Assembly (NCBI GenBank): GCA_964194585.1
Contig: CAXMNG010000251.1
Location: forward strand, 1-46,459
Length of the DNA stretch: 46,459 bases
Source: Salibacteraceae bacterium
GTDB taxonomy: Bacteria; Pseudomonadota; Gammaproteobacteria; HK1
Direction of reading: 5' to 3'
In this document: one piece after another, positions 7,254-46,060 of the stretch
Numbering within the stretch: the stretch's first letter is position 1
How the letters are laid out: every line of letters starts with the position of its first letter
Notes under the pieces: generated by a model
Databases searched by the model: none
What the model saw: only the letters and a program-made list of their open reading frames with translations
What the model was told of the DNA's origin: nothing
Program-made: the position numbers and the translations under genes

Positions 7254-7257
7254 GCCT

Positions 7258-7971: not shown

Positions 7972-8216
7972 GATCAGGTGACTCGGTGGCCGTGCTCCGT
8001 AGAATATCGAATCTGCCACCGGCGCGCGGGAGCCGAATGGCAGCCGACCCGGCCGGAACAGACCGGTGGGGGTTCGCCCGGCAGCCGGGACGTGTGGGGT
8101 AGCAAGACTCCCAAACTGCTTTGGGCGTGCCAGGTTCGCTAGACTATACTTTTTTAGTTCTGCGACAACCCGGGCCGACGCCTCGAGTGTCTATCTGCCA
8201 AAACGAGGGATCATGA

Positions 8217-9254: not shown

Positions 9255-9299
9255 TCCAGGGCGTGCGAAGAGGAAGACACCCGCCGTCGGAGCAGCGAA

Positions 9300-10469: not shown

Positions 10470-10517
10470 TGGCGGTGCCCCGCCAGATTTTGAATCCTTG
10501 TATCTGTTAGCACCTCT

Positions 10518-11576
10518 ATGGATATCCAACCCTACCTGAAGCTGCTGGTTGAGAAGAACGCCTCCGACCTGTTTTTCACGGCCGACTCGCCCGTGAAGCT
10601 CAAGTTGGAAGGAAGAGTAACCTCCGTCGGCAAAACCACACTCACCCCGGACCTGGTCGAAGCCGCCGTCAATGGCATTATGGACGACCGGCTCAGGCAG
10701 TTGTTCGCCGATACATGGGAATGTGATTTCGCTATCGCGCTTCCCGATGAAAGCGCGCGCTTTCGTATCAATGTGTTCCGCCAGCGCGGCAAGATCGCGA
10801 TGGTAGTCCGACTCATCCCGATGACTATTCCCACCATCGCGGAGCTGGGGCTTCCCGATATTCTGAATGAGCTGGTAATGACCAAACGCGGCCTCATTCT
10901 CATGGTTGGCGCCACGGGGTCGGGAAAGTCCACTACGCTGGCGGCCATGATAGACCATCGAAACGAAACCCATCCGGGGCACATTCTTACCATCGAGGAC
11001 CCAATCGAGTTTTATCATTCGAATAAGAAGTCCATCGTCAATCAGCGGGAAGTAGGCGTCGATACCATCTCTTACGCCAAGGCCCTTCGGTCGTCGCTGC
11101 GCGAGGCGCCGGACGTCATTCAGATTGGCGAGATACGTGATCGTGAAACCATGGAAGCGGGGCTCGAGCTCAGCAACACGGGACATCTCGCGATATCCAC
11201 CATGCATGCCAACAACTCCAACCAGGCCATGGAGCGGGTCATCAACATGTTTCCTCAAGTGCTGCACAAGCAGCTGTTCATGGATATGTCGTTGAACCTG
11301 TGCGCGATCATTTCGCAACGTCTGGTACCGGATCTCGACGGCAAGCGCTGCGCGGCGGTGGAAATTCTGATCAACACGCCGCATATCTCGGAGCTGATAC
11401 TCAAGGGCGAGATCGGCGAGATCAAGCAAGCCATGCAGGAGAGCGGCTCGCGGGGAATTCAGACCTTCGACGATGCCCTGTTCGCCCTGTACAAGGAAGG
11501 AAGAATCAGTCTCGACGAGGCGTTGAACAACGCCGATTCGCGTACGAATCTGGAAGCGAAGATTAATTTCGGCTAG
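10518..11576 (+). CDS. third PilT/PilU-family ATPase (PilU-like paralogue)
   Basis: 352 aa. Walker A GATGSGKST. TPHISELILKGE sits in place of AIRNLIRE. The N-terminus is parallel to the PilU copy (ASDLFFT.., ECDFAI). Confidence 0.88.
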   Translation: MDIQPYLKLLVEKNASDLFFTADSPVKLKLEGRVTSVGKTTLTPDLVEAAVNGIMDDRLRQLFADTWECDFAIALPDESARFRINVFRQRGKIAMVVRLIPMTIPTIAELGLPDILNELVMTKRGLILMVGATGSGKSTTLAAMIDHRNETHPGHILTIEDPIEFYHSNKKSIVNQREVGVDTISYAKALRSSLREAPDVIQIGEIRDRETMEAGLELSNTGHLAISTMHANNSNQAMERVINMFPQVLHKQLFMDMSLNLCAIISQRLVPDLDGKRCAAVEILINTPHISELILKGEIGEIKQAMQESGSRGIQTFDDALFALYKEGRISLDEALNNADSRTNLEAKINFG

Positions 11577-12775
11577 ATAACGCCGTCGGCGGTCAGTCGC
11601 TCGATGTCGGCGTGGGAAAGCCCGAGTTCCCCCAGAATTTCCTCGTTGTGCTCACCGAGCGCCGGGCCGGGCCACAGGGTTTCACCTGGAGTGTCTTCCA
11701 GTCGCGGAACCAGCGCTGGGATTTTCAGCGGATCGCCGTCGACCTGAACAGTTTCGAACATGCCGCGGTCGTTGAATTGCGGATCCCGCATCATGTCCTC
11801 GACGCTGTAGATGGGACCCGATGGCACCGAGACTGCGGCGAGACGCTCGAGCACCTCGCCGGAATCGAGCGTCGCCGTCCACCGGGAGATGGCGCCGTCG
11901 ACCTCTTCCTGATGCTCGACGCGACCGGCGTTGTCGCGAAGGCGGGCGTCGTCCGCCAGGTCGTCGCGGCCCGCGGCGCGCATCAGGCGCTGATATATCG
12001 AGTCGGCGTTGCCGCCGATGATCACATACTTGCCGTCCGCGCAAGGGTAGGTGTTGGTGGGCACGATGCCGGTGAGCGTCGAGCCCGACGGGCCGCGCAC
12101 CACATCGGCGCCGTCGTACTCCGGCACCACCGATTCCAGCATGTTGAACACCGACTCGTAGATGGCTACGTCCACCACCTGCCCGGAACCCTCGGCTTTC
12201 GAGCGTTGCTGGAGCGCCAGAAGAATACCGATGACGGCGTGCAGAGCCGCCAGCGTGTCACCCATACTGAGATTCGGCCGCACCGGCGCTTCGCCGGGAA
12301 AGCCGTTGACGTGACGAAATCCCCCGAAGCCTTCGCACACGGACGCGAATCCCGGCCACGAAGCGAGCGGACCGCTTTGTCCGTATCCTGAAACCCGGGC
12401 GTAGACCAGGCCAGGATTGCGTTTTTTCAGCTCTTGGGGTGAGAGATCCCATTTCTCCATCGTGCCCGGCCGAAAATTCTCGATCAGCACGTCGGCGTGC
12501 TCCGCCAGACGGGCGGCGATGGCCCGTCCTTCTTCTTTGCGCAGATCCAGGGTAATGCACTTCTTGTTGCGCCCCATGGACCGCCACCACAGGGACGTGC
12601 CGTTCTTCAGCACGCGCCAGTTACGCAGGGCGTCACCGCGGACCGGAGGCTCGATCTTGATGACCTCGGCGCCGAAGTAACCGAGCATGCAGCCGGCGAA
12701 TGGACCGGCGATGAGCTGGCCCATCTCGAGCACCCGGATGCCGTCCAGCGGGCGTGCATGGCCGGGTGCGCTCAT
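11573..12775 (-). CDS. family III CoA-transferase (CaiB/BaiF type)
   Basis: LDGIRVLEMGQLIAGPFAGCMLGYFGAEVIKIEPP signature. ATG 12775 has AAGGGG 5 nt upstream and avoids overlap with the upstream gene. Its stop shares a CTAG with the convergent pilU-like gene. Confidence 0.88.
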   Translation of the reverse strand: MSAPGHARPLDGIRVLEMGQLIAGPFAGCMLGYFGAEVIKIEPPVRGDALRNWRVLKNGTSLWWRSMGRNKKCITLDLRKEEGRAIAARLAEHADVLIENFRPGTMEKWDLSPQELKKRNPGLVYARVSGYGQSGPLASWPGFASVCEGFGGFRHVNGFPGEAPVRPNLSMGDTLAALHAVIGILLALQQRSKAEGSGQVVDVAIYESVFNMLESVVPEYDGADVVRGPSGSTLTGIVPTNTYPCADGKYVIIGGNADSIYQRLMRAAGRDDLADDARLRDNAGRVEHQEEVDGAISRWTATLDSGEVLERLAAVSVPSGPIYSVEDMMRDPQFNDRGMFETVQVDGDPLKIPALVPRLEDTPGETLWPGPALGEHNEEILGELGLSHADIERLTADGVI

Positions 12776-12794
12776 GAATGCCCCTTGGACAAGG

Positions 12795-13673
12795 TCACTG
12801 CCAGTGGACGCTGTAGGCATCGAAGACCGGCCCGTCGACGCACACGCGTTTCATGGCCGGGCCCTGCGGGGTGTCGATGCGTACGGCGCAGCCGGCGCAG
12901 CCGCCCACGGCGCAGGCCATGTATTCCTCCAGGCACACCTGGCACGGCAGGGAATACGCCCGCGCCAGTGCCGCGGTGGCCGACAGCATGGGCGTGGGGC
13001 CGCAGGCAAAAACGTACACCTGGCGGCGGCGTTCCTCATCCAGGCTGCCCAGCCAGGCGCGCGCCAGATCGGTCACGTAGCCGTCGTAACAGCCCGGGTA
13101 GCCCTGCAGGCTCGCGAGCCGGCTGGCGATGCCCCAGTCCTCCATCAGGGGCATACAGGCGATGACTCCGGGGGGCATTCCGGCCACCAGCGTCTGGGAG
13201 GGCCGGGTGACGAAGGGAAAGGGTACTTCGGAGCCCATGATCACGAATGGCTGAAGTTTCGGTTCCCGGCCGCGGAGATCGTCGGCAAGAAATACCATCG
13301 GCGGAATGCCGACGCCGCCGCCGATGAGCAATGGCAGCGGGTGGCTATCCGGTGCGGAAAACGGCACGCCGATGGGTCCCAGGATACTCAGCACCTGGCC
13401 AGCCTGCTTTTCGGACAGCAGTGCGGTTCCAGAACCTACCACCTTGTACAGAAACTCGGCCCAGCCGCGGCGCGCGTCCACGCGCATCACCGACAGCGGG
13501 CGGCGCATGGGCAGCAAATCATCGCACCGCAGGTGGGCGAAGCTACCCGCCCGCGCCGCGGCGGCGAGCTTCGGTGCTTGCACCCGCAGCACAAACTGAT
13601 CGCCGGGATACGCATCGTTGGCGAGTACCTCGGCGCTCTCCACGAAGATGCTGTTGCGGTCTTCTTTGCTCAT
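12795..13673 (-). CDS. PyrK-like FAD/NAD-binding iron-sulfur flavoprotein (dihydroorotate dehydrogenase electron-transfer subunit family)
   Basis: 292 aa. RPLSVM FAD motif, GGGVGIPP nucleotide-binding motif, and a C-terminal 2Fe-2S Cys cluster CQVCLEEYMACAVGGCAGCAV. Confidence 0.8.
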   Translation of the reverse strand: MSKEDRNSIFVESAEVLANDAYPGDQFVLRVQAPKLAAAARAGSFAHLRCDDLLPMRRPLSVMRVDARRGWAEFLYKVVGSGTALLSEKQAGQVLSILGPIGVPFSAPDSHPLPLLIGGGVGIPPMVFLADDLRGREPKLQPFVIMGSEVPFPFVTRPSQTLVAGMPPGVIACMPLMEDWGIASRLASLQGYPGCYDGYVTDLARAWLGSLDEERRRQVYVFACGPTPMLSATAALARAYSLPCQVCLEEYMACAVGGCAGCAVRIDTPQGPAMKRVCVDGPVFDAYSVHWQ

Positions 13674-28815: not shown

Positions 28816-29562
28816 ATGCTTTTGATTCCAGCGATTGACCTGAAGAGTGGTCGTTGCGTACGTCTGCGCCAGGGACGCATGGACGACGAAACGGTTTTCT
28901 CCGACGATCCGTTGGCCGTGGCCCAGCGTTGGGTCGATGCAGGTACCCGCCGGCTGCATATCGTCGACCTCGACGGGGCCGTGAGCGGCCGGCCGGAGAA
29001 CGCGGAAGTCATTCACAGCATTACGGAAAGATTTCCCGATTTGCCGGTGCAGGTCGGTGGCGGCATTCGCGACGACGACACCATCCAGTCTTACCTGGAT
29101 GCCGGCGTAACATACATTATCATCGGCACCAAGGCGGTGAACGCTCCCCACTTCGTCGCGGACGTTTGCGCGGAATTTCCGGGTCACATTTTCATCGGCC
29201 TCGATGCTCGCAAAGGAAAGGTTGCCACCGACGGCTGGTCGAAGTTGTCCCATCACGACGTCGTCGATCTGGCGCAGCAGTTCGAGCGCCACGGCGCGGA
29301 GTGCATCGTGTATACGGATATCGAGCGGGACGGGATGCTGACAGGCGTCAATGTCGAGGCGACCGTGCGGCTCGCTCGATCGATCAAGATCCCCGTTATT
29401 GCTTCCGGGGGCATCCATACGATCGACGACGTGCGCGTGCTCTGCGAGGTTGCCGGCGAAGGAATCATTGGCGTGATTACCGGTCGTGCAATCTACGAGG
29501 GCAGTCTCGATTTCCGCGAGGGCCAGAGCCTGGCCGATCGTATCGCGGCGGGCGAGTCGTAG
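28816..29562 (+). CDS. hisA: ProFAR isomerase HisA
   Basis: [32 protein letters not shown]; 248 aa. It starts 15 nt after the polA stop. Confidence 0.95.
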
Positions 29563-29565
29563 ACC

Positions 29566-30360
29566 GTGGGTCTCGCGAAACGCATTATTCCTTGCCTGGA
29601 CGTGGACGCCGGACGCGTCGTCAAGGGTGTGAACTTCGTCGCTATTCGCGATGCGGGTGACCCAGTGGAAATCGCTCGCCGATACGACGACGAGGGTGCC
29701 GACGAACTCACCTTTCTCGATATCACCGCGTCATCGGACGAACGCGACACCATCGTGTCGGTGGTGGAAACGGTAGCGAGCGAGGTATTCATCCCACTCA
29801 CAGTGGGAGGAGGGGTGCGCGCATGCGCCGACATACGACGCCTGCTCAACGCCGGAGCCGACAAGGTTTCCATAAATACCGCCGCAGTCGCGCATCCCGA
29901 CTTCGTCGGCGAAGCGTCGGCGCGTTTCGGCGCCCAGTGCATTGTCGTCGCCGTCGACGCAAAGCGTGCAGCGGAGAAAGTTGGGGGCAGCGACGGACAG
30001 GAACCGGGGCCGCGCTGGGAGGTGTTCACCCATGGGGGCCGCACCCCCACCGGACTGGACGCGGTGACATGGGCACGGCGCATGGCCGAGCTCGGCGCCG
30101 GTGAGATACTGCTCACCAGCATGGATCGCGACGGGACCCGCAACGGCTTCGATCTGGAGCTCACGCGCGCGGTGGTGGACGCGGTGCCGGTGCCGGTGAT
30201 CGCTTCGGGGGGCGTGGGCAACCTCGAGCATTTGAGTGACGGCGTTCTGACGGGCGGCGCCGATGCCGTGTTGGCTGCGAGTATCTTTCACTTCGGCGAA
30301 TACAGCATCGGTGAGGCGAAACGCAGCATGGCCGCCCGCGGCATCGAAGTCCGGATGTAG
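29566..30360 (+). CDS. hisF: imidazole glycerol phosphate synthase cyclase subunit HisF
   Basis: [35 protein letters not shown]; the GTG start lies 3 nt after the hisA stop. Confidence 0.95.
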
Positions 30361-30367
30361 CCTGTGC

Positions 30368-30416
30368 GGCAGTGCGGAGGGCACTGCCGGGGACAGATTT
30401 TAAATCTGTCCCCGGC
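30368..30416. repeat. two abutting stem-loops after hisF; the second is a copy of the palindromic element GGGGACAGATTT-N-AAATCTGTCCCC
   Basis: GGCAGTGC (30368-75) pairs with GCACTGCC (30381-88). GCCGGGGACAGATTT (30386-400) pairs with AAATCTGTCCCCGGC (30402-16). There is no U-tract, so terminator function is only possible. Confidence 0.7.
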
Positions 30417-30492
30417 ATGTCCTACACTTAACCGGATGGGCAATTCCAGAACAAACCGGGTCAACGGCTAGGTCAGCTCTCAGGGATATCGC

Positions 30493-32325
30493 GTGGAACT
30501 CAGCCTAGAAATCTCCGGCGATCAGATCGCGGGCGCCCGGGATTATCAAGAAGACGCTTTCCTGACGACCTATCTCGATGACGAAAGCGGCGAATCGAAG
30601 TCTTCGGCGCTTGTCGTCGTCGCAGACGGTATGGGTGGTCACGCAGCCGGCAACATCGCCAGCAACATGGTGGTTTCCACCTTCAATAAGACCTTCACGG
30701 GTAAGTTCGGAAAGCAGGACCCGCCTGGGGTGCTACGCGGAGCGCTCAAGAACGCCAATGAGGGGCTCAAGGAATCCATCGAGGAAACGCCCGGCCTGGA
30801 CGGCATGGGCTGCACCATGGTCACGGCGGCCATTACCAAGGGCAAGATTTACTGGATCAGCGTCGGCGACAGCCATCTATACGTGATCCGCGATCGCGAG
30901 ATCACCAAGAAAAACGAAGACCACAGCTACGGCGGCTATCTGGACCGCATGCGATCCCAGGGCATCGACGTCGAGGCCGAGGCAGGGCTGTCGCGCAACA
31001 TGCTGATGAGCGCCATGACGGGGGAGGAGATCGCGGAAGTGGATTGCCCGAACGCGGGCTACCAGCTGTTGCCCGGGGACCGTGTGATCATCGCCAGTGA
31101 CGGCCTGGACACCCTGGAAAGCGAGACCATTCTAAAGACCTCCGCCTGGTCCCACACGCCTAAGGAGTGCGTGGCCGGGTTGCTGAAAGCGGTGGACGAA
31201 GCCAAGCGTCCGCGTCAGGACAATACCACCATCGTGGTCGTCGACGTGGTCGAGCGCCAGCCGGTGGAAGGCCGGGCGCCGGCGCCACAGGCTGCGGCGG
31301 TGGAAGTCGCGCCGGCGCGGGCAGAGTTTGCGCGGGAGCGCGATCTTCCGACCAAGCCGAGCGGTGGTCACAAGGGACTGATTTTTTCCCTCATTTTGTT
31401 GCTGGCCGCGGGAGCCGGCGGCGGCTACGTGTACATGACGGGTATGTGGCGGAACTGGCTGCCAAAGGATCAGGCACGTACTCAGCCGCCGCGAGTACAA
31501 CCCGAGCCCGTGAAAGTGCGGCCCGAGCCGGAGCCCGAGCCCGTGAAAGTGCAACCCGAGCCCAAACCCGTGCCCGAGCATCTTCCGCCGACCGCTGTCA
31601 GGGAATTTCGGGACAGTTTGAAATCCGGCGGCAAGGGACCGGCGATGATGGAAATTCCCGCGGGCAGCTTCGAGATGGGCAGCCCGAACCACTCCGTCGA
31701 GGTCAGCGAGAGGCCCAAGCGTATGGTGGACATACCGGCCTTCGCAATGAGCAAGTACGAGGTCACCTACGTCGAATACGAACGCTTCGCTCGGGCAATG
31801 GGGCGCAAGAAGCCGAAGAACCCGGGTTTGGACAAGAAGACCCACCCGGTGATCTTCGTCAGCTGGGACGACGCCCTGGCGTACACTCGCTGGTTGTCGA
31901 CCCAGACAGGCAAGAAGTACCGCCTGCCCACTGAGGCGCAATGGGAGTACGCGGCGCTCGCCGATACCGCCACCGCCTACTGGTGGGGACGTGAGCTGGG
32001 AAGCGGGCGCGCCCATTGTTTCAACTGCGACACCGGACTCAATCCGCGCGCCTCCACCAGCGTGGGACGCTTTCCAGCCAGCTTGTTCGGGTTGCACGAT
32101 ACGTCGGGCAACGTGGCCGAATGGGTACGTGACTGTTGGCATCCCAACTATCAGGATGCGCCTACCGATGGCTCGGTCTGGGAAGGCGGGGATTGCACCT
32201 ACCGCGTCGCGCGCGGGGGCTCTTTTCTGAACACGGGAAAATCCATACGCGCCAAGAAGCGCACCAAGTGGAAGTCTCAGCGCGGCTACGACTCGGTGGG
32301 TTTCCGGATAGTGCGCGAACGCTAG
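30493..32325 (+). CDS. PP2C-family Ser/Thr phosphatase fused via one TM helix and a Pro-rich repeat linker to an FGE-sulfatase (SUMF1)-like domain
   Basis: 610 aa. PP2C motifs YQEDAF, VVADGMGGHAAG, DGMGCT, VGDSHLY, ASDGL. TM helix LIFSLILLLAAGAGGGYVYM. PEPVKV repeats. FGE-like core HPVIFVSWDDALAYTRWLS..YRLPTEAQWEYAA..GNVAEWVRDCW..RVARGGSF. GTG start. Confidence 0.85.
   Translation: MELSLEISGDQIAGARDYQEDAFLTTYLDDESGESKSSALVVVADGMGGHAAGNIASNMVVSTFNKTFTGKFGKQDPPGVLRGALKNANEGLKESIEETPGLDGMGCTMVTAAITKGKIYWISVGDSHLYVIRDREITKKNEDHSYGGYLDRMRSQGIDVEAEAGLSRNMLMSAMTGEEIAEVDCPNAGYQLLPGDRVIIASDGLDTLESETILKTSAWSHTPKECVAGLLKAVDEAKRPRQDNTTIVVVDVVERQPVEGRAPAPQAAAVEVAPARAEFARERDLPTKPSGGHKGLIFSLILLLAAGAGGGYVYMTGMWRNWLPKDQARTQPPRVQPEPVKVRPEPEPEPVKVQPEPKPVPEHLPPTAVREFRDSLKSGGKGPAMMEIPAGSFEMGSPNHSVEVSERPKRMVDIPAFAMSKYEVTYVEYERFARAMGRKKPKNPGLDKKTHPVIFVSWDDALAYTRWLSTQTGKKYRLPTEAQWEYAALADTATAYWWGRELGSGRAHCFNCDTGLNPRASTSVGRFPASLFGLHDTSGNVAEWVRDCWHPNYQDAPTDGSVWEGGDCTYRVARGGSFLNTGKSIRAKKRTKWKSQRGYDSVGFRIVRER
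31498..31578 (+). repeat. 33-bp in-frame tandem repeat (about 2.4 copies) encoding the (Q/R)PEPVKV..PEPEPEPVKV..PEPKPVPE linker
   Basis: CCCGAGCCCGTGAAAGTGC occurs at 31501-31519 and again at 31534-31552. A third, diverged start is at 31555. Confidence 0.8.
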
Positions 32326-32362
32326 CCACGACCATGGCTGCCCCCGCCGTCTGAATACTCGA

Positions 32363-32971
32363 ATGGATGTAGTCCGACTTTTGTGCCGAGCGGGTCGCTG
32401 GGGTGTCGCGGCGGCGCTTTTGCTCCTGGTCGGTTGCGCCAAGCCCTCCATGGTGGACGATCATCTGGAGTCCGGCGGCACGCCGGCGGTGGAGTTCTCC
32501 GTCGACGACAAGTCGGTCACCTTGTCGGCTCGTTTCGATGCCGGTCTGGCCGTGGACGAGCCGTTCATCGTGGAGTGGTTGTTTCCCGATGGCCAAGTCT
32601 ATCTGCGCAAGCCGGTGCGCCGAAGCTACGACAGCTCCGACCTCATCGAGACGGCCATGCCGATCCGGGGCAAGGCGCCCGCCAGGTATCCTGGAATCTG
32701 GCAGGTACGCCTGTGGCGTGATGGTGACAAGCTGGTCGAGCAGTCCTTCGAGATTCGCAAGCCCGTGCAGACAGCGGCATCGGCCGGGGCGGGATTTGCG
32801 AGCCTCGCCTATTGCGGCCCGTCGCGCTGGAACGACCCGGTCATCAGCAGGCGCCGTTCGGGCTCTTCCGCCACCGGTGTACCGGGGGCCTGGATCGGAG
32901 GGGGGTTGCTCGAGGCCGCCGGCGCCACCTACTCGCGCGTGGTTCTGCTGACCGGATGCGCTCCCGGCTAG
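32363..32971 (+). CDS. hypothetical lipoprotein
   Basis: 202 aa. Signal peptide with lipobox LLLVGC. No recognisable domain. Same strand as, and 37 bp after, the PP2C-FGE gene. Confidence 0.6.
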   Translation: MDVVRLLCRAGRWGVAAALLLLVGCAKPSMVDDHLESGGTPAVEFSVDDKSVTLSARFDAGLAVDEPFIVEWLFPDGQVYLRKPVRRSYDSSDLIETAMPIRGKAPARYPGIWQVRLWRDGDKLVEQSFEIRKPVQTAASAGAGFASLAYCGPSRWNDPVISRRRSGSSATGVPGAWIGGGLLEAAGATYSRVVLLTGCAPG

Positions 32972-33014
32972 TGTCCGCCTTTGCCGCGCGGTTGAGTGAC
33001 CTTCATCGTCAGCC

Positions 33015-33800
33015 ATGAAAATCCGCGCCGTAAATATCGCCGACAAGCCTGCATGGCTCGCTTTGCGCCAGCGTCTGCGTCCCGCACTCAGCGACCAGCA
33101 ACACGCGCGGGACTGGAATCGAATGATGGAGCAACGCGGCCAGCGCATAACACTGCTGTGCGTCAACGGGCAGGAGGCGTTGCTGGGAATGATCGACGTG
33201 TCGCGCCGGGGGCAGGCTGATGAGCTCGGTTCAGGCCCCGTCGCCTACGTGGACGCCCTTCACGTGGAGCCGGCACAAGCGCGCGAGGCGACCGCCCGAC
33301 GCCTTGCCGAGGCGGCCGCCAGCTGGGCCCAGGCCCGGGGCTGCCGGGTGCTCGCTACCGACACCGGCCTGGACAACCAGTGGCAACAGAAGCTCCTCCT
33401 CGAGCTCGGCTTCGAGGAGCTCGCGCGCAAGGTGGTGTACCGCAGAGTCCTGGCCGTGCCGACGCCGGCCTCCCCGGCTGCCGCGACGAGCCCGGGGCCG
33501 CAGCCCCAGCCGGTGGCGGGAGTGCACGCCGGCGGAGTGGGGGAAATCGTGGGCCACGACGATGGTCCGAGCTGGTGGCCGGGTCCGACGCGTGCCGCGA
33601 TATTCGTTCTGGGTATTCTTTCCTTTTACTTCACCAACATATTCAGCGGCAGCATATTCTTCGGTTTCGTGCTGCCCGTCCTCGACGTGCTGTTCGTCAT
33701 TTACCTGTTGATGTTGTTCGTCAGCATGAAGTACCGCGGCAAGATCGGCGCCGGCGAGCGCCAGATGGACCTGTACCAGGTGCCCGACGACGGCGAGTGA
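33015..33800 (+). CDS. GNAT-family N-acetyltransferase (AAC(6')-like N-terminus) with C-terminal membrane anchor
   Basis: 261 aa. MKIRAVNIADKPAWLALRQRL..YVDALHVEPAQAREATARRLAEAAASWAQARGC..LELGFEE, then a Pro/Ala linker and two hydrophobic helices (AAIFVLGILSFYFTNIF, IFFGFVLPVLDVLFVIYLLMLFV). Confidence 0.7.
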   Translation: MKIRAVNIADKPAWLALRQRLRPALSDQQHARDWNRMMEQRGQRITLLCVNGQEALLGMIDVSRRGQADELGSGPVAYVDALHVEPAQAREATARRLAEAAASWAQARGCRVLATDTGLDNQWQQKLLLELGFEELARKVVYRRVLAVPTPASPAAATSPGPQPQPVAGVHAGGVGEIVGHDDGPSWWPGPTRAAIFVLGILSFYFTNIFSGSIFFGFVLPVLDVLFVIYLLMLFVSMKYRGKIGAGERQMDLYQVPDDGE

Positions 33801-33894
33801 AGAATGTCGGCGCGCTGGTCGCCTCCTCGGCGCTCCATAAGAGCCCGGCCCGCGGGCTGGTAATCCTCGTGGCGCTGGCCCCGTTAAATACGCC

Positions 33895-34914
33895 ATGAGC
33901 GCGATACCCGCGGTAACGATCCTCATGCCGGCGCGCAACGTGGCGGCCACGCTTGGTTCCTGCCTGGACTCGATTCAGGCGCAAAGCCTCAGGGACTTCG
34001 AGTTGCTCATCGTCGACGACGCTTCCAGCGACGGTACCCACGAGATGGTATCGGCGCGGGCGGCGGCGGACGCGCGAATACGCCTGCTGCGTGTACCGCG
34101 ACGTGGACTGGTGGCATGTCTCAATGCCGGCCTCGGCGAGGCGCGCGCAGCGTTGATCGCGCGCATGGACGGTGACGACGTGATGGATTGCGAGCGCCTG
34201 GCCCTGCAACGAGACTATCTGCAACAGCACCCGGACGTGGATGTGGTGGCGAGTCGTGTGCGCGCATTCCCGGCCGACCGGGTGCAGGCGGGGATGCGCG
34301 AGTATCTGCGTTGGCAGAACGCATGTCTCGGCAGCGACGCTCTGCGCGACGAAGTCTACGTCGAGTGTCCGATAACCCATCCGAGTGCCATGTTTCGTCG
34401 CGCCGCGGTGATCGCCGCCGGCGGCTACCGGGACGGTGACTTTCCCGAAGACTACGAGCTGTGGCTGCGCCTCACCGAGCATGGGTGCCGCATGGCGAAA
34501 ATCGACCGCTGTCTTCTCCACTGGCGTCAGCGCGACGACAGTCTTTCCCGTCGCGACCCGCGTTACTCGCGAGATGCCTTCGACCGCCTACGGGCATGCT
34601 ATCTGGCCCGCGACCGGCGCCTGCAGAGCGGACGACCGCTGGTTTTCTGGGGGGCCGGCCGGCGTACCCGCCGGCGTACCGGCCATTTCGTTGCGCTGGG
34701 CTTTGCGCCTTGCGCCTGGGTAGATGTGGATCCACGCAAGATCGGAAACCGCATTCGCGACATACCGGTGGTGGCACCCGAGTGGCTCAACCACCAGCAG
34801 CCGCGGCCTTTTGTGCTCGCATGGGTGGCGAGCCACGGTGCCCGGGCGAGCATCGAAGCCGCCCTGGCGGCTATGGGCTATGGGCGTGGAGTGGACTACC
34901 TGGCGGTGGGCTAA
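33895..34914 (+). CDS. family 2 glycosyltransferase with C-terminal Rossmann-like extension
   Basis: VTILMPARNVAATLGSCLDSIQAQSLRDFELLIVDDASSDGT and the DxD-type ARMDGDD. The C-terminal LVFWGAGRR..VDVDPRKIGNRIRDIPVV resembles NeuD/PglD N-domains. Confidence 0.85.
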   Translation: MSAIPAVTILMPARNVAATLGSCLDSIQAQSLRDFELLIVDDASSDGTHEMVSARAAADARIRLLRVPRRGLVACLNAGLGEARAALIARMDGDDVMDCERLALQRDYLQQHPDVDVVASRVRAFPADRVQAGMREYLRWQNACLGSDALRDEVYVECPITHPSAMFRRAAVIAAGGYRDGDFPEDYELWLRLTEHGCRMAKIDRCLLHWRQRDDSLSRRDPRYSRDAFDRLRACYLARDRRLQSGRPLVFWGAGRRTRRRTGHFVALGFAPCAWVDVDPRKIGNRIRDIPVVAPEWLNHQQPRPFVLAWVASHGARASIEAALAAMGYGRGVDYLAVG

Positions 34915-36212
34915 ACGGCAATGGCGCCGGTGGACAGGCGCTCGGTGGCCTGGGACAGGCGCGCCACCAATGCCGACAGGAAGACCTTATGGAAGCGCAA
35001 CTGGCAGTTGAGCGACGCGCGTTCGATCATCGACGGGCGTACGTTCATGGTGGTCACGCCGGTCTTGGCAACGATGGTGGCACTGCGTTCCTTGCGCGCG
35101 ATGAATCCCATCTCGCCGAAACAATCTCCCTGATGCAGCTCGTCCACCTCCATGTTGCCCTTCCGCACGGTCACGTCTCCCGAGATGATGACGTAGAAGG
35201 ACGTATCCAGCTCACCCTCGGCGATGATCTCGCTGCCTGGAGTGAAATCCAGCCAGCCGCTGGAGTTGATCACCTCCCAGATCTCGGCCTCGGTGAATTC
35301 GTCGAAGAAGGTAAGGCTTCGCACCAGCTTGAATTTCTCCTCGCCGGGAAGCTGTTCGTCGAGTAGCTTGATGTGGTCGTAGACGAGACTCAGATCCGCG
35401 GCCAGATCGAGCCCCATCTTATAGCGTTGCCCAGCCTGCTTGCAGAGCGCCCGGTCGAGAATTCGCCCGAGTATCTGGGGCGCGTCGGAGCGCATCTCCG
35501 AAAGAGGGGTGTGTGTCTTCTCGGTGATGCGATGGGCGATGGCGGGCAGATTGTCCGCGGCGAACGGGTGTCTACCCGTCAGCAGCTCGTACATGACCAC
35601 ACCCAGGGAAAAGATATCGGTTTGGTTGCTGATGCTGTCGTCCCTGACCTGCTCCGGCGACATATACAGCGGCGAGCCGATATAGCCGTGCACCTGCGTG
35701 TCGGTGGCGTCGCCGTGGGTCCTCAGCGCGATGCTGAAGTCGCTCAATTTTACTTCGCTGTCCACGGTGAGGAGAATATTGCGCGGCTTGACGTCGCGGT
35801 GAATCACTCCCTGCCGGTGGGCGTAGTCGAGCGCCCGGGCGCTCTTGAATATGATCCGCACCACGTCTTCGATGGGCAGCAGACTGTCCGGCTGACAATG
35901 GTCGAAGAGGGTACGGCCACCGGATATCAGCTCCATGACGATGTAGCAGATTTCGTCCTCGACCCCGGCGTCGTAGACGCCGACGATGTTCGCGTGGCGA
36001 AGTTTCCCCGCTACCTTGGCCTCGTTGAAGAACAGCTTCCGATAACGGGCGCCGCCGCGCTTGTCCAGGAGCGATTCCGGCAACGCCACTTTGATGGCCA
36101 CGTCGCGTCCGGTGAAGGGGTCGTGACCGAGATACACGACGCCCATGCTGCCCCGGCCGATTTCATGAAAGACGTCGTACTTGCCGAGGGTCGTATTTTT
36201 GAGGTCATGCAT
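34911..36212 (-). CDS. Hanks-type Ser/Thr protein kinase with C-terminal cyclic-nucleotide-binding domain
   Basis: GRGSMGVVY G-loop, VAIKV, HRDVKPRNILL, DFS (in place of DFG), SPLYMSPEQ. C-terminal CNB cassette FGEMGFIARKERSATIVA. ATG 36212 is preferred; the ORF-track start at 36323 is a TTG. Confidence 0.85.
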   Translation of the reverse strand: MHDLKNTTLGKYDVFHEIGRGSMGVVYLGHDPFTGRDVAIKVALPESLLDKRGGARYRKLFFNEAKVAGKLRHANIVGVYDAGVEDEICYIVMELISGGRTLFDHCQPDSLLPIEDVVRIIFKSARALDYAHRQGVIHRDVKPRNILLTVDSEVKLSDFSIALRTHGDATDTQVHGYIGSPLYMSPEQVRDDSISNQTDIFSLGVVMYELLTGRHPFAADNLPAIAHRITEKTHTPLSEMRSDAPQILGRILDRALCKQAGQRYKMGLDLAADLSLVYDHIKLLDEQLPGEEKFKLVRSLTFFDEFTEAEIWEVINSSGWLDFTPGSEIIAEGELDTSFYVIISGDVTVRKGNMEVDELHQGDCFGEMGFIARKERSATIVAKTGVTTMNVRPSMIERASLNCQLRFHKVFLSALVARLSQATERLSTGAIAV

Positions 36213-36345: not shown

Positions 36346-37173
36346 TCAGTCGAATCCCCTGGTGGCGAGCACTTCGCGTGCGGGGGTGCGGTCGCCGGTG
36401 CGGCTGATGCTGCGCGGGGCCTGCATGAATGCCAGGCGGAAGTCGAGGGATTCGTAGAGCGCGACGATGCGCTCGGTGGCCTGGTTGGAGAGCACCACCG
36501 GACCCTTGTGCATGCTGAGCCAGCGGGCCAGCCGTACCTGCTCGCTCCAGTCGAACCCGTAGCGCGAATACTGCCGGAAGGGAACGTCGTAGGGAGGATC
36601 CGCGTAGATGAAATCATCGTCCTCCAGCTCGAGGGCCTCGAAGTCTCCGCTGCTGAAATGCCAGCGGCAGAGAACCCCCCGATAGGCGCCGAAGTTGCGC
36701 ACGTAATTAATGCGTTCATGGCGGCCGAAGGGTACGTTGAACTCGCCCTTGCGATTGAATCGGCAAAGTCCGTTGTAAGCCGTTCGATTCAAGAAGTAGA
36801 AAAGCTCGGCGGCCTTGCGGCTGATCAGACCCCGGCGCGTCGATGCCAGACGATTGAAGTCGCTGCGATGTTGGTAGTAGAGATCCCTTTCGTTACGCAT
36901 GGCGAGGCGTATGGTCAGTCCTTTCTGCAGGTGCTGGTAGAAATTAACCGGGTGTGGGTTGACGTCGTTCAGGAGCGCGCGTTGTGGATCGATGCCCAGC
37001 GCCACCGCCAACCCGCCGCAGAAGGGCTCAACGAGGCGCCGGGAGGCCTGCGCACGCCACAGGCGCTGCAGCTGTGGCGCCAGCCAGCGTTTACCTCCGG
37101 CCCACTTGAGCGGCGGGCGCAAACGCGCTGCGCGATCGTCGCTGATCGGGATCGATGGGGGCGCTTGCGTCAT
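36346..37173 (-). CDS. dam: DNA adenine methyltransferase (Dam family, GATC-type predicted)
   Basis: 275 aa from ATG 37173. PPLKWAGGKRWL, motif I EPFCGGLAV, catalytic motif IV FIYADPPY. No adjacent endonuclease gene. Confidence 0.9.
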   Translation of the reverse strand: MTQAPPSIPISDDRAARLRPPLKWAGGKRWLAPQLQRLWRAQASRRLVEPFCGGLAVALGIDPQRALLNDVNPHPVNFYQHLQKGLTIRLAMRNERDLYYQHRSDFNRLASTRRGLISRKAAELFYFLNRTAYNGLCRFNRKGEFNVPFGRHERINYVRNFGAYRGVLCRWHFSSGDFEALELEDDDFIYADPPYDVPFRQYSRYGFDWSEQVRLARWLSMHKGPVVLSNQATERIVALYESLDFRLAFMQAPRSISRTGDRTPAREVLATRGFD

Positions 37174-37186
37174 CGGTGCTGATTCC

Positions 37187-37945
37187 CTAAACGGCCGGGG
37201 ACGCGGCGCGTTTCTCCCAGCTCCAGCCGCCGAGATCCAGGGCCTCGGTGAGCCAGGCGACGGCGTCATCGACATTTCCGGCGTGGCCGCGCACGCCGAG
37301 CTCGGTCTCACGGTAGTCGCCTTGCATGTGTGGCAGGCAGGAGAACTCCACCTCGGGAAAGCGCGCGACAAAATCCTGCATGATGTCGATGAGCTGGCCC
37401 TCGCTGACATCGGGCAGAGTCAGCAGAATCTCCGCCGGTAGCTCCTGGTCGCGCAGATGCGGATAGTGATTGTCCAGTACCCACTCCATCATGGGCCACG
37501 CCATCTGCGGAAAGCCGGGGACGAAGTGCAGCTTACCCAGGCTGAATCCCGCGATCCGGTTGACCGGATTCGGAATCAGGGTGCTGCCCTCGGGAAGGTC
37601 AGCCATGTGAATGCGCTGGGGATAGGCGCTGTCTGCGAAGCGCTCCTCGATGATGGCCGCCGCTTGTGGGTGGCGAACGAGCATAACGCCCGCGGCGCTG
37701 GCGGCGCTGGCGCGGGTGTGGTCGTCCGGTGTCGCGCCGATGCCACCGCAACAGAACACGATGTCGTCGCTCTCCATGACGAAGCGCAGCTCACGGATAA
37801 TGATTTGCGGATAGTCACCGATGTAGCGGCACCAGCTGAGCGCCAGGCCGCGATGGGCAAGTGCCTCCACGGTATGTGCAAAGTGGCTGTCTCGGCGTTT
37901 CCCCGTGAGCAGCTCGGTGCCGATGACGATCAGTCCGATTCCCAT
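37187..37945 (-). CDS. CinA-N-terminal-like MoCF-binding (MoaB/MogA fold) domain protein lacking the PncC deamidase domain
   Basis: 252 aa from ATG 37945. IGLIVIGTELLTGKRRDSH..VFCCGGIGATPDDHT..IPNPVNRIAGF. Confidence 0.8.
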   Translation of the reverse strand: MGIGLIVIGTELLTGKRRDSHFAHTVEALAHRGLALSWCRYIGDYPQIIIRELRFVMESDDIVFCCGGIGATPDDHTRASAASAAGVMLVRHPQAAAIIEERFADSAYPQRIHMADLPEGSTLIPNPVNRIAGFSLGKLHFVPGFPQMAWPMMEWVLDNHYPHLRDQELPAEILLTLPDVSEGQLIDIMQDFVARFPEVEFSCLPHMQGDYRETELGVRGHAGNVDDAVAWLTEALDLGGWSWEKRAASPAV

Positions 37946-37973
37946 ATTTTCAGGCCACGCTCGCGGCCATTGT

Positions 37974-40900
37974 TCAGGTATTGAGCTCCGCGGCGTCGCC
38001 GCCGGTGGGTCGACCCGAGCGCAGGGCAATGGATTCGTGAACGCACAGCAGGCTCGGAACCACCAGCAACACGAGCAGCGTCGCCACGGCCAGACCATAT
38101 GAGATCGTAACCGCCATGGGGATGAGGAATTGTGCCTGGCGGGAGGTCTCGAACATCAGCGGCGTGAGGCCGGCGATGGTCGTGAGCGAGGTCAGCAGCA
38201 CGGCGCGAAGACGCTGACAGGTGGCCTCGACGATGGCGCGGCGCCAGGGTACGCCGCTCTCCTTCTGTTGCTTGTAGAACATCACCAGGATGATGGAGTC
38301 GTTGACGACGATGCCCGACAGGCCGAACAAGCCGAACAACGAAAGCACAGTCAGATCCAGGCCCATCAGCCAGTGACCCAGAAGTGCGCCGATGACGCCG
38401 AAGGGAATGACGGACATCACCACCAACGGCCAACCGTAGGACGCGAAAACCCATGCCAGCACCACGTAGATCATCGCCAACGCCAGAAGTCCGCCCCGCG
38501 CCATGTCTGCCAGCGTCTCGGTCTGATCCGAGCGGCGGCCTTCATAGGAGTAGTCGATGCCGTAGCGACTCTTCAACCGCTGCAGGGGGCCGGCTTCGAG
38601 ATCCGCAATGACGTCGTTGCTGTTGTTGAGGGCCGGGTCCACCGCGGCCGAAACACGCACGGAAAGATCGCGGTCGTTGTGCCTGAGAATGTCGAATCCC
38701 CGTTGCGTCGAGATCTCGAGCACGGTGAACAGCGGCACACTGCCACCGGCTGCGGTCATGATCTTGAGATCACCGAGACTCGCGAGGTTGTGCCGCTCGC
38801 TATCGGGAAGCACGACCCGCACCTCGATCTCGTCGTCGCCGTCCTGAAAAATCTGCGCAATCCGACCGTCGTAGGCGGCGCGCAATTGACGGCCCACGTC
38901 CTCCACGGTAAGTCCCAGGGTACGGCCTTCGGGCGACAGGCGGTAGATGAGCTGTTCCTGGCCGAAAGGCATGTCATCGCCGATTCCACTCACCCCGCGA
39001 ATGGTGCTCAAGATGCTGGCCAGCTCCAGGGCCGCGGCTTTCAGCTGCGCGGTATCGTTGCCCGGGCGGGTGAGCCGGATATCGATATCGCGGCCCGGCG
39101 GGCCAGGGCGGCGCTCGACGATGGAGAAAGACTCGATGCCGGCAGGAAGGCGCACGCGGCTTTGCCACTCGCGCATGAACTCGGGATTGCCCACGTCGCG
39201 TGCATCGGGTTCCACCAGCTCCACGATGACCGTGCCGAACTGATCGCCGTTCTGGCCGCGCGTGCCGTCGGCGCCTTCGATGATGCCGCGGTGGGTGGTG
39301 GCAACCTCGATAAGCTGCCCGCCCAGTGCCGCCTCGGTTTCGCGCAACGCCTGCTCCACGTGGCCGAGGAAGGTCTCGGTACGCCCGGGCGGCGTGCCGG
39401 CGACGAAGCTGACATTGGCGTAAACGAGCTTGCCTTCCGGCGACGGCAGAAAATGAAAAGCCAGCCGCCCTCCGGCGAACAGGCCGATGCTCACCAGCAG
39501 CAGAGCCACCGCGACGCTGAGCGTCGTCCACGGATTCGCAACACTCGCCGTCACGAGGGTTCGAAAGCGGCCTTCGCGAAAGCTCGCAAACGCTGCATCC
39601 AGTCGCAGGCGCAGCGCCGAAACAGGGCGCTCGTGCATATTCTCGAATGCGTGGCGCAGATGCCCTGGGAGCACCAGAAAGCTTTCCACCAGCGAGGCGA
39701 TGATGACGCACACCACCACCATGGGGATGTCGAAGAGCACGTGGCCGATGATGCCGCTCACCAGCATCAGCGGCAGAAAGGCCGCTATGGTGGTCAAGGA
39801 AGACGAGATCACCGGCGCCAGCATGCGCCGCGCGCCGCCCTCGGCCGCCTCCAGGGGATTCTCGCCGGCATGGTAGTGGGTGAGCGCGTCCTCGCCCACC
39901 ACGATGGCATCGTCGACGATGATGCCCAGGGCCATGATGAGGCCGAAGAGGCTCACCATGTTGATGCTGCCGCCGATGAGATAGAGCATGCCGAGGGTCG
40001 CCATGAAGGATATCGGGATACCCACTGCCACCCAGAACGCGACGCGGCCGTTCAGAAACAGAAACAGGATGAGTACCACCAGAACCAGGCCGCCGGCGCC
40101 GTTCTTCAGCAACAGCTGGATGCGCTCCTTGATCAACAGCCACGCCTGGTCGTAGACAATCACTCGGATCCCCGGCGGCCAGCGACCGCGGTTGTCCGCC
40201 TGCCAGCGGGCGAGCATTTCCGCCGATTCGAGGCTGCTGGCGTTCTCGTTGCGCTTGAGGCGCATCTCGATGGCCGGTTGGCCAGCGATGGTGACCACGG
40301 TTTGGTGGCTACGGGCACGCCGCTCGATGGTGGCGATGTCTCCCAGGGTCAGAAGCCGGCCCGATTCATCGCTGAGCAGCGGCAGGCGCTCGAAACCCAC
40401 TTCCCGTCGGCGCTGATCCAGTGCCCGCAGTTGCCGGGACACGTCGTTCAAGCCGATGTTCCCGGCTGGCAGATCGCGACTCAGCCGGGCCACCCGATCG
40501 GCGATGTCGTCCAGCGACAGGTCCAACTCGTGCAGCACGGCGGCCGGTACCTGGATGGCGATCTCTTGCTCCGGGAGTCCCACCAGTTGGATGTTGGCGA
40601 TGCCGCGATCCAGCAGCTCGCGTTCCATCTGCTGCACCAGCGCGCGCAGCTCGCCGATATCAGTGTCGGCGCTGGTCACCAGCACCCGGGCCACAGGCTC
40701 GTAGCGCACGACGCGGGCGATCTCCGGCGTCTCCGCCGCCGCGGGGAGATTGCGCACCAGCGCCACCTGCTCCTTTACCTGGTCCAACGCCACGCCCATG
40801 TCGGTGCCCTCTTCGTACTCGAGGACAATGCTCGCCGAGCCCTCGGCGGAGTTGGACGTCATCTGGCGGAGCCCATCCAGGGAACGGAGCTGCTGCTCCA

Positions 40901-45118: not shown

Positions 45119-46060
45119 CTAGGGGACAGATTTGAAATCTGTCCCCCCGCCCAGCTGATCTCCTACCGCTAATGGCGCATCGACGAGGTATTCGGCGACC
45201 GTCATTTTCTTCGCTCCCTGGGGTCGCAGACGGTGGATCTGGATCTGACCATCGGCGCAGGCGACGCTGACGCCGTCGTCTCCCACGGCGGTTATCTGGC
45301 CGGGGGTGGCACCGTCGTCGGCTTCTTGCTTGGTGCAATCGAATATCTTTACAGTGGTTTCGCCATGGCGCGTCCAGGAGCCGGGTTGCGGGTTGGCACC
45401 GCGAATCAAATTCCAGACTTCCTGGCTCGGCCTCGTCCAGTCGATCTCCACGTCTTCGGCGCGGCACCAGCCTTCGTAGGTCGCCATGGATTCATCCTGG
45501 ACAAGCTTGGGCGCCTTGCCGTCGCGTACAAGGTCGACGCTTTCCAGCATCGCCTCGACGCCCATGGGGAACAGATGATTGAAGTACAAGCTGCCGAGCG
45601 TGTCGTCATCCCTGATGGGGACTTCCTTCTGCATCAGGATGGGACCGGTATCCAGTCCATTGTCCGGCCAGAAGATGCTCAACCCGGTTTTCTCGTCGCC
45701 CTGGATAATCGGCCAGTTGATAGAGCTCGGGCCGCGGTGCAGCGGCAGCAGTGATGGGTGGTATTGAATGCTGCCGAGCGTTGGAGTGTTGAGCGCTTGC
45801 TCCGGAACGATCAACGTGACATAGGCCATGATGCAGAGATCTGCCTCGAGGGATGCCATCTGCGCCCAGACCTCGGGGTTCTTGAAGGACTTCGGTTGAA
45901 ACAAGGGCAGCTCGTGTTCCAACGCGGCCTCTTTGATGGGATCGATCCTTTCGCCCTTGTCAGGCTCGCAGTAGACACCCACTATCTCTTCCCCGCGCCC
46001 AAGCAATGCTTCCAGCACCGCTTTCCCGTATGCCTGCTGGCCGTTGATCATAATTTTCAT
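45119..46060 (-). CDS. formyltransferase family protein (Fmt fold; motifs closest to the 10-formyl-THF dehydrogenase N-terminal domain / ArnA type)
   Basis: 313 aa. MKIMINGQQAYGKAVLEAL..SIQYHPSLLPLHRGPSSINWPIIQGDEKTGLSIFWPDNGLDTGPILMQ, plus a C-terminal Fmt-C-like barrel. Confidence 0.85.
   Translation of the reverse strand: MKIMINGQQAYGKAVLEALLGRGEEIVGVYCEPDKGERIDPIKEAALEHELPLFQPKSFKNPEVWAQMASLEADLCIMAYVTLIVPEQALNTPTLGSIQYHPSLLPLHRGPSSINWPIIQGDEKTGLSIFWPDNGLDTGPILMQKEVPIRDDDTLGSLYFNHLFPMGVEAMLESVDLVRDGKAPKLVQDESMATYEGWCRAEDVEIDWTRPSQEVWNLIRGANPQPGSWTRHGETTVKIFDCTKQEADDGATPGQITAVGDDGVSVACADGQIQIHRLRPQGAKKMTVAEYLVDAPLAVGDQLGGGTDFKSVP
45122..45146. repeat. second copy of the palindromic element GGGGACAGATTT-N-AAATCTGTCCCC
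   Basis: 12-bp arms at 45122-33 and 45135-46. It is identical to the 30390-30414 core except for the central base (G versus T). It sits between convergent panE and the formyltransferase gene and overlaps the latter's last codons. Confidence 0.85.

Follow-up and report, generated by a model that had tools for sequence, protein, structure and literature searches.

A PP2C phosphatase with an FGE-fold domain and a convergent kinase with a cyclic-nucleotide-binding domain in uncultured Gammaproteobacteria

Described kinase/phosphatase systems and the locus

The nearest characterised analogue of the phosphatase considered here is PstP of Mycobacterium tuberculosis, a membrane PP2C with an extracytoplasmic domain that is encoded near the Hanks kinases PknA and PknB and works with them as a reversible switch (PMC12088040, PMC6213207). 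Our locus lies on contig CAXMNG010000251.1, a stretch of 46,459 nucleotides that is referred to as the window. Its plus-strand genes encode a PP2C phosphatase with a transmembrane (TM) helix and an FGE-like domain, a lipoprotein, a membrane GNAT and a family 2 glycosyltransferase (GT2), and they converge on a minus-strand gene for a Hanks-type Ser/Thr kinase (STK) with a cyclic-nucleotide-binding (CNB) domain (Table 1). Like PstP, which supplies the closest solved PP2C, the window phosphatase looks bitopic, with its PP2C in the cytoplasm, one TM helix and a domain outside. The outside domain, however, has a PvdO/FGE fold, and the kinase is soluble with a CNB domain instead of the TM helix and PASTA domains; moreover, the PstP system is one co-directional operon, whereas genes of the window type are convergent, with one to four genes between them, in a Gram-negative host.

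Parts of this combination have counterparts elsewhere. FGE-sulfatase (SUMF1) domains occur in the periplasm on single-pass bacterial STKs of Planctomycetota and of 'Proteo1' in the STK atlas (PMC11032199; bioRxiv 10.1101/2025.01.12.632604), and these proteins share with the window phosphatase a periplasmic FGE-fold module, one TM helix and a cytoplasmic enzyme of Ser/Thr phospho-signalling, but that enzyme is a kinase in the former and a phosphatase in the latter. In Tsi3-type FGE-like immunity proteins of type VI secretion systems (T6SS), the fold can be a pure protein-binding scaffold (bioRxiv 10.1101/2021.05.21.445229). Tsi3 and PvdO (5hha, of pyoverdine maturation) are both like the window domain in being periplasmic and in having the FGE fold without the catalytic Cys residues; they are unlike it in that the window domain is fused to a PP2C and has no pyoverdine or T6SS gene context. 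CNB-PP2C fusions are known from myxobacteria (PMC2887360), and a survey of PP2C proteins lists CNB-PP2C fusions and does not mention FGE fusions (PMC12088040). The kinase recalls the eukaryotic cGMP- and cAMP-dependent kinases PKG and PKA, which likewise couple a Ser/Thr kinase to a CNB domain that has a canonical phosphate-binding cassette, but these have N-terminal tandem CNB domains, whereas the window kinase has a PknB-like kinase domain and a single C-terminal CRP-like CNB domain with a long C-helix. Mycobacterial Pat is a CNB-GNAT fusion, whereas the GNAT of the window is a separate membrane protein. The alignment of that GNAT domain (aa 1-147) with AAC(6')-Iy/Ih runs from one end to the other, and the window protein differs in its added linker and two-helix membrane anchor, and in having a kinase as neighbour rather than a resistance context. 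As for the PpkA/PppA/Fha pathway of the T6SS, no FHA or T6SS genes were found in the window or the related loci, and PppA is a structural relative of the PP2C part only.

Hanks kinase/PP2C signalling is well known, and the combination of a PP2C-TM-FGE protein with a kinase-CNB protein is uncharacterised in the literature found. An initial annotation of this DNA, made from its letters, had known of no characterised system of such composition, and the literature that we found on bacterial STKs and PP2Cs agrees, since it holds no description of a PP2C-TM-FGE protein and no characterised bacterial STK-CNB. To our knowledge, in almost all studied Hanks kinase/PP2C pairs it is the kinase that has the extracellular sensor; in the window it is the phosphatase that has an outward-facing domain, and the CNB domain belongs to the kinase. 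Should the two enzymes be cognate, a gammaproteobacterium would offer a natural example of Ser/Thr phosphorylation that is gated by a cyclic nucleotide (cNMP) and counteracted by a phosphatase sensing the periplasm. The reading that we tentatively prefer is that the locus holds a chromosomally fixed, lineage-specific and probably cognate kinase/phosphatase pair of uncultured Gammaproteobacteria, and not a fixed envelope-glycan cassette.

Conservation of the pair and of its catalytic motifs

The convergent phosphatase and kinase genes are kept in about 15 independent loci (including L001, L003, L005, L007, L008, L012, L013, L083, L091 and L174), with phosphatases 53-97% identical, and the pair survives the gain, loss or replacement of one to four genes lying between its members. 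In the window and L001 the intervening genes encode a lipoprotein, a GNAT and a GT2, to which L003 and L083 add a HIT protein, and L008 has the same trio with a lipoprotein of 375 aa. L005 retains the lipoprotein and the GT2, and L091 has a lipoprotein of 414 aa and the GNAT. An M28 peptidase stands in place of the lipoprotein in L007 and L012, where it is accompanied by the GNAT, and in L174, where a DsbH-like thioredoxin is present as well; the minimal locus is L013, with three genes in all and only the lipoprotein between the pair. The GT2 is absent from L007, L012, L013, L091 and L174, and the GNAT from L005 and L013. Of the loci counted, 13 of 16 have the phosphatase, 12 of 15 the GNAT and 6 of 13 the GT2. 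The GT2 counts as accessory; the features that remain stable are the convergence of the pair inside a single clade, the link of a periplasmic protein with the phosphatase gene and that of a membrane GNAT with the kinase gene, and they lead us to favour a lineage-specific cognate pair. The lipoprotein, GNAT and GT2 had been taken in the initial annotation for a fixed unit, which the losses and the replacement just described contradict, and the 'envelope modification switch' that was built on them should not be propagated as an annotation, because the set is not a conserved output module. The kinase/phosphatase switch itself fared better: the motifs of both enzymes are intact, the topology of the phosphatase fits and the pair is convergent in the clade.

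A protein search returned more than 3000 matches to the phosphatase, and the PP2C-TM-FGE architecture is kept, with few exceptions, in the best 120 that were inspected. When each GTDB species was scanned through a single genome, 338 genomes had a relative, and the best 80 were analysed for context by tblastn of all window proteins against the loci and by clustering of the neighbouring open reading frames (ORFs); the phosphatases of these 80 are nearly all full-length, and the genomes are all uncultured metagenome-assembled genomes (MAGs), nearly all labelled Gammaproteobacteria. Only in the window-like clade, i.e., six of the 80 species genomes and the metagenome loci L001-L009, is the phosphatase (there at least 53% identical to that of the window) preceded by polA-hisA-hisF and followed by a convergent kinase-CNB gene. 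The remaining loci have housekeeping neighbours of other kinds. In class B (37 genomes) the phosphatase gene is preceded by pyrD, DUF2064, radical-SAM and NUDIX genes and followed by HAD, GFA, HxlR, GGDEF, ppa and pfk; in class C (at least 21 genomes) by HrpA and Na/H exchanger genes before and MFS, CYTH, moaA, fdhD and mobA after; and in class D (three genomes) by polA and hisA before and unrelated genes after. Kinase, GT2, GNAT and lipoprotein are all absent within 10 kb in classes B, C and D. A further 14 metagenome contigs carry both the phosphatase and the kinase, as judged by equal contig sizes in the two match lists.

The kinase-CNB search gave 6219 matches, the best 120 of which are at least 59% identical and have the same architecture. 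Among the loci so found, L091 and L174 are window-like with no GT2, L090 has a lone kinase-CNB gene and no phosphatase, and in L092 and L173 a tandem pair of kinase-CNB genes converges with a membrane GNAT, beside acyl-CoA dehydrogenase and electron transfer flavoprotein genes and again with no phosphatase. Near 18 more distant full-length kinase-CNB genes among the metagenome matches listed (37-49% identity) none of the other four block genes was found, and a plain PP2C gene lies near one of the 18. The tandem duplications span 8772-11428 in L092 and 10001-12713 in L173, where the second copy consists of separate kinase and CNB ORFs, either through a frameshift or as a genuine split, and the 60%-identical gene of L090 stands alone between two DDE transposase genes (6900-13450), a hint at mobilisation of the kinase gene.

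The PP2C part of the phosphatase is recognised at residues 7-252 by the Pfam models PP2C_2 (41.4 bits, cutoff 24), SpoIIE (35.6, cutoff 25) and PP2C (32.2, cutoff 20.3), and the FGE-sulfatase model PF03781 covers the C-terminal domain with 186 bits over positions 3-255 of its 255. One hydrophobic helix lies between them, and this arrangement fits a bitopic protein with a cytoplasmic PP2C and a periplasmic FGE-fold domain. The metal-coordinating motifs of the PP2C (RDYQEDA, ADGMGGH, VGDSH, ASDGL and QDNTT) are invariant in 12 of 12 orthologues, down to 52% identity. Its nearest solved structures are M. tuberculosis PstP (2cm1 and 1txo, E about 1e-22) and then P. aeruginosa PppA, and it scores 137 against a cutoff of 230 with the NCBIfam model for Stp1-type phosphatases. 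For the FGE-like part, PvdO (5hha, E 5e-33) and ToxD are the nearest solved structures, true FGEs score lower, and the NCBIfam PvdO model NF051459 gives 136.7 bits against a cutoff of 500. The catalytic, copper-binding Cys pair of FGE comes directly after its RGGS motif. At that position the phosphatase reads RGGSFLNTGKSIR, with no Cys, and none is there in any of the 12 orthologues; because the pair is absent, the domain is not formylglycine-generating. A reading as an FGE enzyme, with the Cys pair missing and no sulfatases nearby, was ruled out; the scanned ORFs of the window and the related loci contain no sulfatase domains. The Cys residues that are invariant in the 12 orthologues are others, namely C509, C512, C548 and C568, which include an AHCFxC motif and would fit a disulfide-bonded periplasmic domain. 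An exact-sequence look-up of the window phosphatase returned no record.

The kinase gene matches Pkinase with 168.9 bits and cNMP_binding (PF00027) with 50.1 bits against a cutoff of 27.5. Its motifs are GRGSMG, VAIK(V), HRDVKPRN, DFS (in which S/G is variable) and SPLYMSPE, and K41, H138-R139-D140, N145 and D158-F159, as well as T172-Q173 of the activation loop, are invariant or nearly so in 14 homologues. In the same homologues F365, G366, E367 and R376 of the CNB phosphate-binding cassette FGEMGFIARKERSAT are invariant. For both enzymes the catalytic motifs, and for the kinase those of the cassette, are kept in orthologues down to about 52-60% identity, with most residues invariant, so that the phosphatase and the kinase both look catalytically competent and the cassette looks intact. 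In the AlphaFold2 (AF2) model, the CNB barrel and a long C-helix (401-429) are confident, as in CRP-type proteins; the N-lobe is poor, with a mean predicted local distance difference test score (pLDDT) of 64. The kinase scores 260 with the Stk1-type model (cutoff 450) and has no PASTA domain, and the co-directional operon layout of Stk1/Stp1 is not found either, the window pair being convergent with three genes between. A search of the PDB with the whole kinase put Plasmodium PKG entries on top, and the CNB part weakly matches the Pat model of NCBIfam.

Competing explanations and a proposed mechanism

Gene order, domain content, the conservation of catalytic and ligand-binding motifs and the persistence of neighbours are matters of observation, and several explanations of them have to be weighed. 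The most serious competitor of a cognate pair, though we think it less likely, is that these are functionally independent genes made neighbours by descent, i.e., that a block polA-hisAF-phosphatase and a block GNAT-kinase-dam-cinA-acrB merely abut in this lineage. Synteny does reach far past the five genes, and the blocks are found apart: class D (L018, L020, L031) has polA-hisA-phosphatase without the kinase, and L092 and L173 keep dam...kinase-GNAT without the phosphatase. Much of this tells against the pair that we prefer. Among the best 80 of the 338 genomes with a PP2C-TM-FGE gene, about 70 lack kinase, GT2, GNAT and lipoprotein genes within 10 kb of it, so that most of these phosphatase genes are orphans at the level of the locus; the gene-neighbourhood check proposed at the outset is thus borne out for the pair inside the close clade and fails outside it. 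The phosphatase is likewise missing beside some kinase-CNB genes (those of L090, L092, L173 and the 18 distant loci), the loci encode neither a cyclase nor an FHA protein nor any other obvious substrate, all members of the locus come from MAGs, and conserved adjacency alone is no proof of functional coupling, because in the same genomes synteny extends over the whole polA-ppsA region. What mere descent accounts for less well is that the convergent pair outlasts the turnover of one to four genes between its members, down to the three genes of L013, and adjacent kinase/PP2C pairs are typically cognate (PMC6213207). A cognate system is further supported by the GNAT, which, with its TM hairpin, is convergent with the kinase even in the phosphatase-less L092 and L173. 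The initial annotation had gone further, with a two-input switch that senses a periplasmic ligand through the FGE-like domain and a cytoplasmic cNMP through the CNB domain and specifically controls an envelope-glycan module of lipoprotein, GNAT and GT2, and this we regard as improbable. All three genes do lie between the pair in the window, L001, L003, L008, L014 and L083, and the 3' end of the GT2 gene, where present, abuts or overlaps that of the kinase gene; the comparative data nevertheless show that the trio is not required for the pair, the GT2 being missing from 7 of the 13 complete related loci, the GNAT from two, and the lipoprotein being replaced by the M28 peptidase in three. An envelope glycan as target is not indicated by any of the genes; flippase, polymerase, sugar-nucleotide and lipid-carrier genes are not found near the block, and a glycan pathway cannot be named, because the GT2 and the GNAT score far below every curated equivalog cutoff. 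That the FGE-like domain is a 'ligand sensor' is something we infer only.

A different role for the FGE-fold domain, as a periplasmic oxidoreductase of the PvdO kind, with a secreted metabolite or a protein of the periplasm for its substrate and with the PP2C coupling it to cytoplasmic signalling or unrelated to the kinase, strikes us as very doubtful. PvdO, named as a dihydropyoverdine dehydrogenase, is the best relative both among solved structures and in NCBIfam, and four invariant Cys residues with their AHCFxC motif would suit an enzyme. On the other side, the PvdO model falls far short of its cutoff (137 vs 500), the invariant Cys residues differ from those of the active regions of FGE or PvdO, and no pvd, siderophore or nonribosomal peptide synthetase genes are present in any locus. 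Least credible of all is anti-phage defence, by a kinase of the PD-T4-6/MADS type acting with the adjacent Dam methylase, which we reject on context. The kinase domain does match PADLOC PD-T4-6 (up to 253 bits) and mad6 (217 bits), and the neighbouring gene does encode a Dam-family methyltransferase, but the matches are confined to the generic kinase domain, and the scores with the NCBIfam models lie well below cutoff (MAD6 142 vs 460, PglW 90 vs 990). The four plus-strand genes of the block and cinA have no PADLOC match, dam is the only other match at the locus and scores best as an orphan methyltransferase, and the locus is vertically conserved among housekeeping genes rather than a variable island.

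Returning to the cognate pair, we infer the relation between the enzymes as well as the direction of regulation, the identities of the ligands and the substrates, and a mechanism can be proposed on these terms. A cyclic nucleotide, on binding the CRP-type domain at the C-terminus, would switch the soluble kinase, which probably dimerises through its long, conserved C-helix; the kinase would autophosphorylate on T172 of the activation loop (within DATDTQ) and then phosphorylate cytoplasmic or membrane-proximal targets. The bitopic PP2C would undo these phosphorylations at the inner membrane, while its PvdO/FGE-fold domain would serve for binding or sensing, most likely in company with the Ig-like lipoprotein, presumed to be co-transcribed, and would synthesise no formylglycine. 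As the steadiest companion on the side of the kinase, the membrane-anchored AAC(6')-like GNAT would be the best candidate for a target or effector, and the GT2, in only part of the clade, would be accessory. A more specific version, quite unlikely as a whole, is that the kinase is a bacterial cyclic-nucleotide-dependent kinase, an analogue of PKA/PKG with a PknB-like core and a CRP-like CNB domain, which together with a trans-envelope PP2C, paired through its ectodomain with the lipoprotein, would place the membrane GNAT under phospho-control by a second messenger and a periplasmic cue, as an undescribed module. Both architectures are widespread, the PP2C-TM-FGE in at least 338 species genomes and the relatives of kinase-CNB in thousands, and since neither has a characterised member in the literature found, one biochemical study would annotate a large family.

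Chromosomal setting and the genes between the pair

The five ORFs of the initial annotation, with their coordinates and domains, agree with the six-frame ORF list of the window, which reproduces all coordinates of the block, and with profile annotation by Pfam and NCBIfam (Table 1). The GT2 stop TAA (34912-34914) and the kinase stop TAG (34913-34911, minus strand) do overlap by 4 bp, in a CTAA at 34911-34914, and the block does follow directly on hisAF. Its lack of any 'backbone-type' gene, which had been remarked upon, holds no sign of an island: the block is conserved chromosome, because its GC content (0.62-0.67) lies within the range of the window (0.55-0.69), it has no mobile-element genes and it is syntenic in relatives. 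On the same three grounds, an origin as an island or by horizontal gene transfer was ruled out. The rest of the window is housekeeping, with proC, three PilT-like ATPases, pyrB/pyrC-type genes, gshB, hemC/hemD, ptsI, mgtE, a LOG-family gene, polA, hisA and hisF, and, on the downstream side, dam, cinA-like, acrB-like, ppsA and fmt-like genes; the order polA-hisA-hisF ... dam-cinA-acrB-ppsA is common to the window and related uncultured Gammaproteobacteria.

Table 1. Coordinates of the block, its predicted domains and its upstream neighbours in the window
Feature	Nucleotides	Strand	Protein (aa)	Remarks
hisA	28816-29562			directly upstream of block
hisF	29566-30360			directly upstream of block
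Palindrome CCGGGGACAGATTT-T-AAATCTGTCCCCGG	30387-30415			perfect, 14-bp arms; in 132-bp hisF/phosphatase spacer
PP2C-TM-FGE phosphatase	30493-32325	+	610
Predicted cytoplasmic PP2C domain	30493-31257	+	1-255	phosphatase
Predicted TM helix	31375-31443	+	295-317	phosphatase; Pro-rich linker follows
Predicted periplasmic PvdO/FGE-fold domain	31639-32316	+	383-608	phosphatase
Lipoprotein	32363-32971	+	202
Ig-like beta-sandwich	32480-32758	+	40-132	lipoprotein; AF2 pLDDT >90
Membrane GNAT	33015-33800	+	261
GT2	33895-34914	+	339
Hanks kinase with CNB domain	34911-36212	-	433
Soluble Hanks-type Ser/Thr kinase domain		-	10-280	kinase
CRP-type CNB domain		-	290-430	kinase; C-terminal

The palindrome in the hisF/phosphatase spacer is a probable boundary of transcription, as a terminator-like (bidirectional) or repetitive extragenic palindromic (REP)-type element. 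The RNA of its region (30358-30430) folds with -44.6 kcal/mol (z = -7.0), the palindrome, with GGGGACAGATTT arms, recurs as a near-copy at 45120-45148, and the arm has four matches where 0.34 are expected; the spacer measures 155-490 bp in relatives. Across the whole window an Rfam scan matched no family and no tRNA genes were found, and a consensus scan for promoters and terminators gave no signal above that of shuffles.

The lipoprotein has no match in Pfam or NCBIfam. Its lipobox LLVGC is at aa 21-25, with Cys25 nearly invariant in 18 homologues, and its C-terminal region is conserved, Cys151 and Cys199 being invariant in the same alignment. A Foldseek search with the model found only generic Ig/MG-like sandwiches. 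The profile of the protein, run over 170 loci, has matches in 13 related loci only, in each of them as the next gene after that of the phosphatase, 8-104 bp downstream. The Ig-like domain, which is unnamed, also occurs in up to five copies in secreted proteins of 600-1500 aa with peptidase M6 or S8, PKD and BACON domains; with 233 representative matches to its profile and only a faint likeness to MG2 or DUF2914 in Pfam, it is a candidate new domain family.

The GNAT (Acetyltransf_1, 41 bits) has its AAC(6')-like domain at aa 1-147 and, after a Pro/Ala-rich linker, two hydrophobic segments (aa 194-210 and 214-237) that would form a helical hairpin, and both the architecture and the TM motif are kept in eight relatives, including those of phosphatase-less loci. 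AAC(6')-Iy (1s3z, E 9e-15) is the nearest solved structure, and all AAC(6') models of NCBIfam stay below cutoff, the best being AAC(6')-III (85.4 vs 305) and group E (80.3 vs 140). The GT2 is a soluble, generic member of family 2 (Glycos_transf_2, 93.4 bits against a cutoff of 23.3, aa 5-235), and its 22 NCBIfam matches are all far below cutoff (EpsE 104.5 vs 450). The C-terminal 105 aa of the GT2 have no match in Pfam; by eye, this extension (residues 235-339, nt 34597-34914) bears some likeness to a small Rossmann-like nucleotide-binding domain of the NeuD/PglD N-terminal type (FWGAGRR...VDVDP).

Beyond the kinase, the longest ORFs of dam (36346-37410, minus strand, 354 aa) and the cinA-like gene (37187-38098, minus strand, 303 aa) overlap by more than 200 bp; their homologues are of about 275 and 255 aa, and translation of the two probably begins near 37182 and 37960. 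In six of the related loci a Dioxygenase_C-like gene of about 210-240 aa lies upstream of the kinase (L001 15966-16679, L003 17106-17834, L007 16363-17025, L008 16624-17340, L173 9248-9886 and L174 9129-9752), directly so in four of the six, with a fatty acid desaturase gene between in L003 and a DUF1499 gene in L007. The window lacks this gene; there the end of dam lies 133 bp away from the start of the kinase. At 8217-9254, 9300-10469 and 10518-11576 (plus strand), the window also has three consecutive ATPase genes of the T2SSE/PilT family, probably paralogues of the pilT/pilU type.

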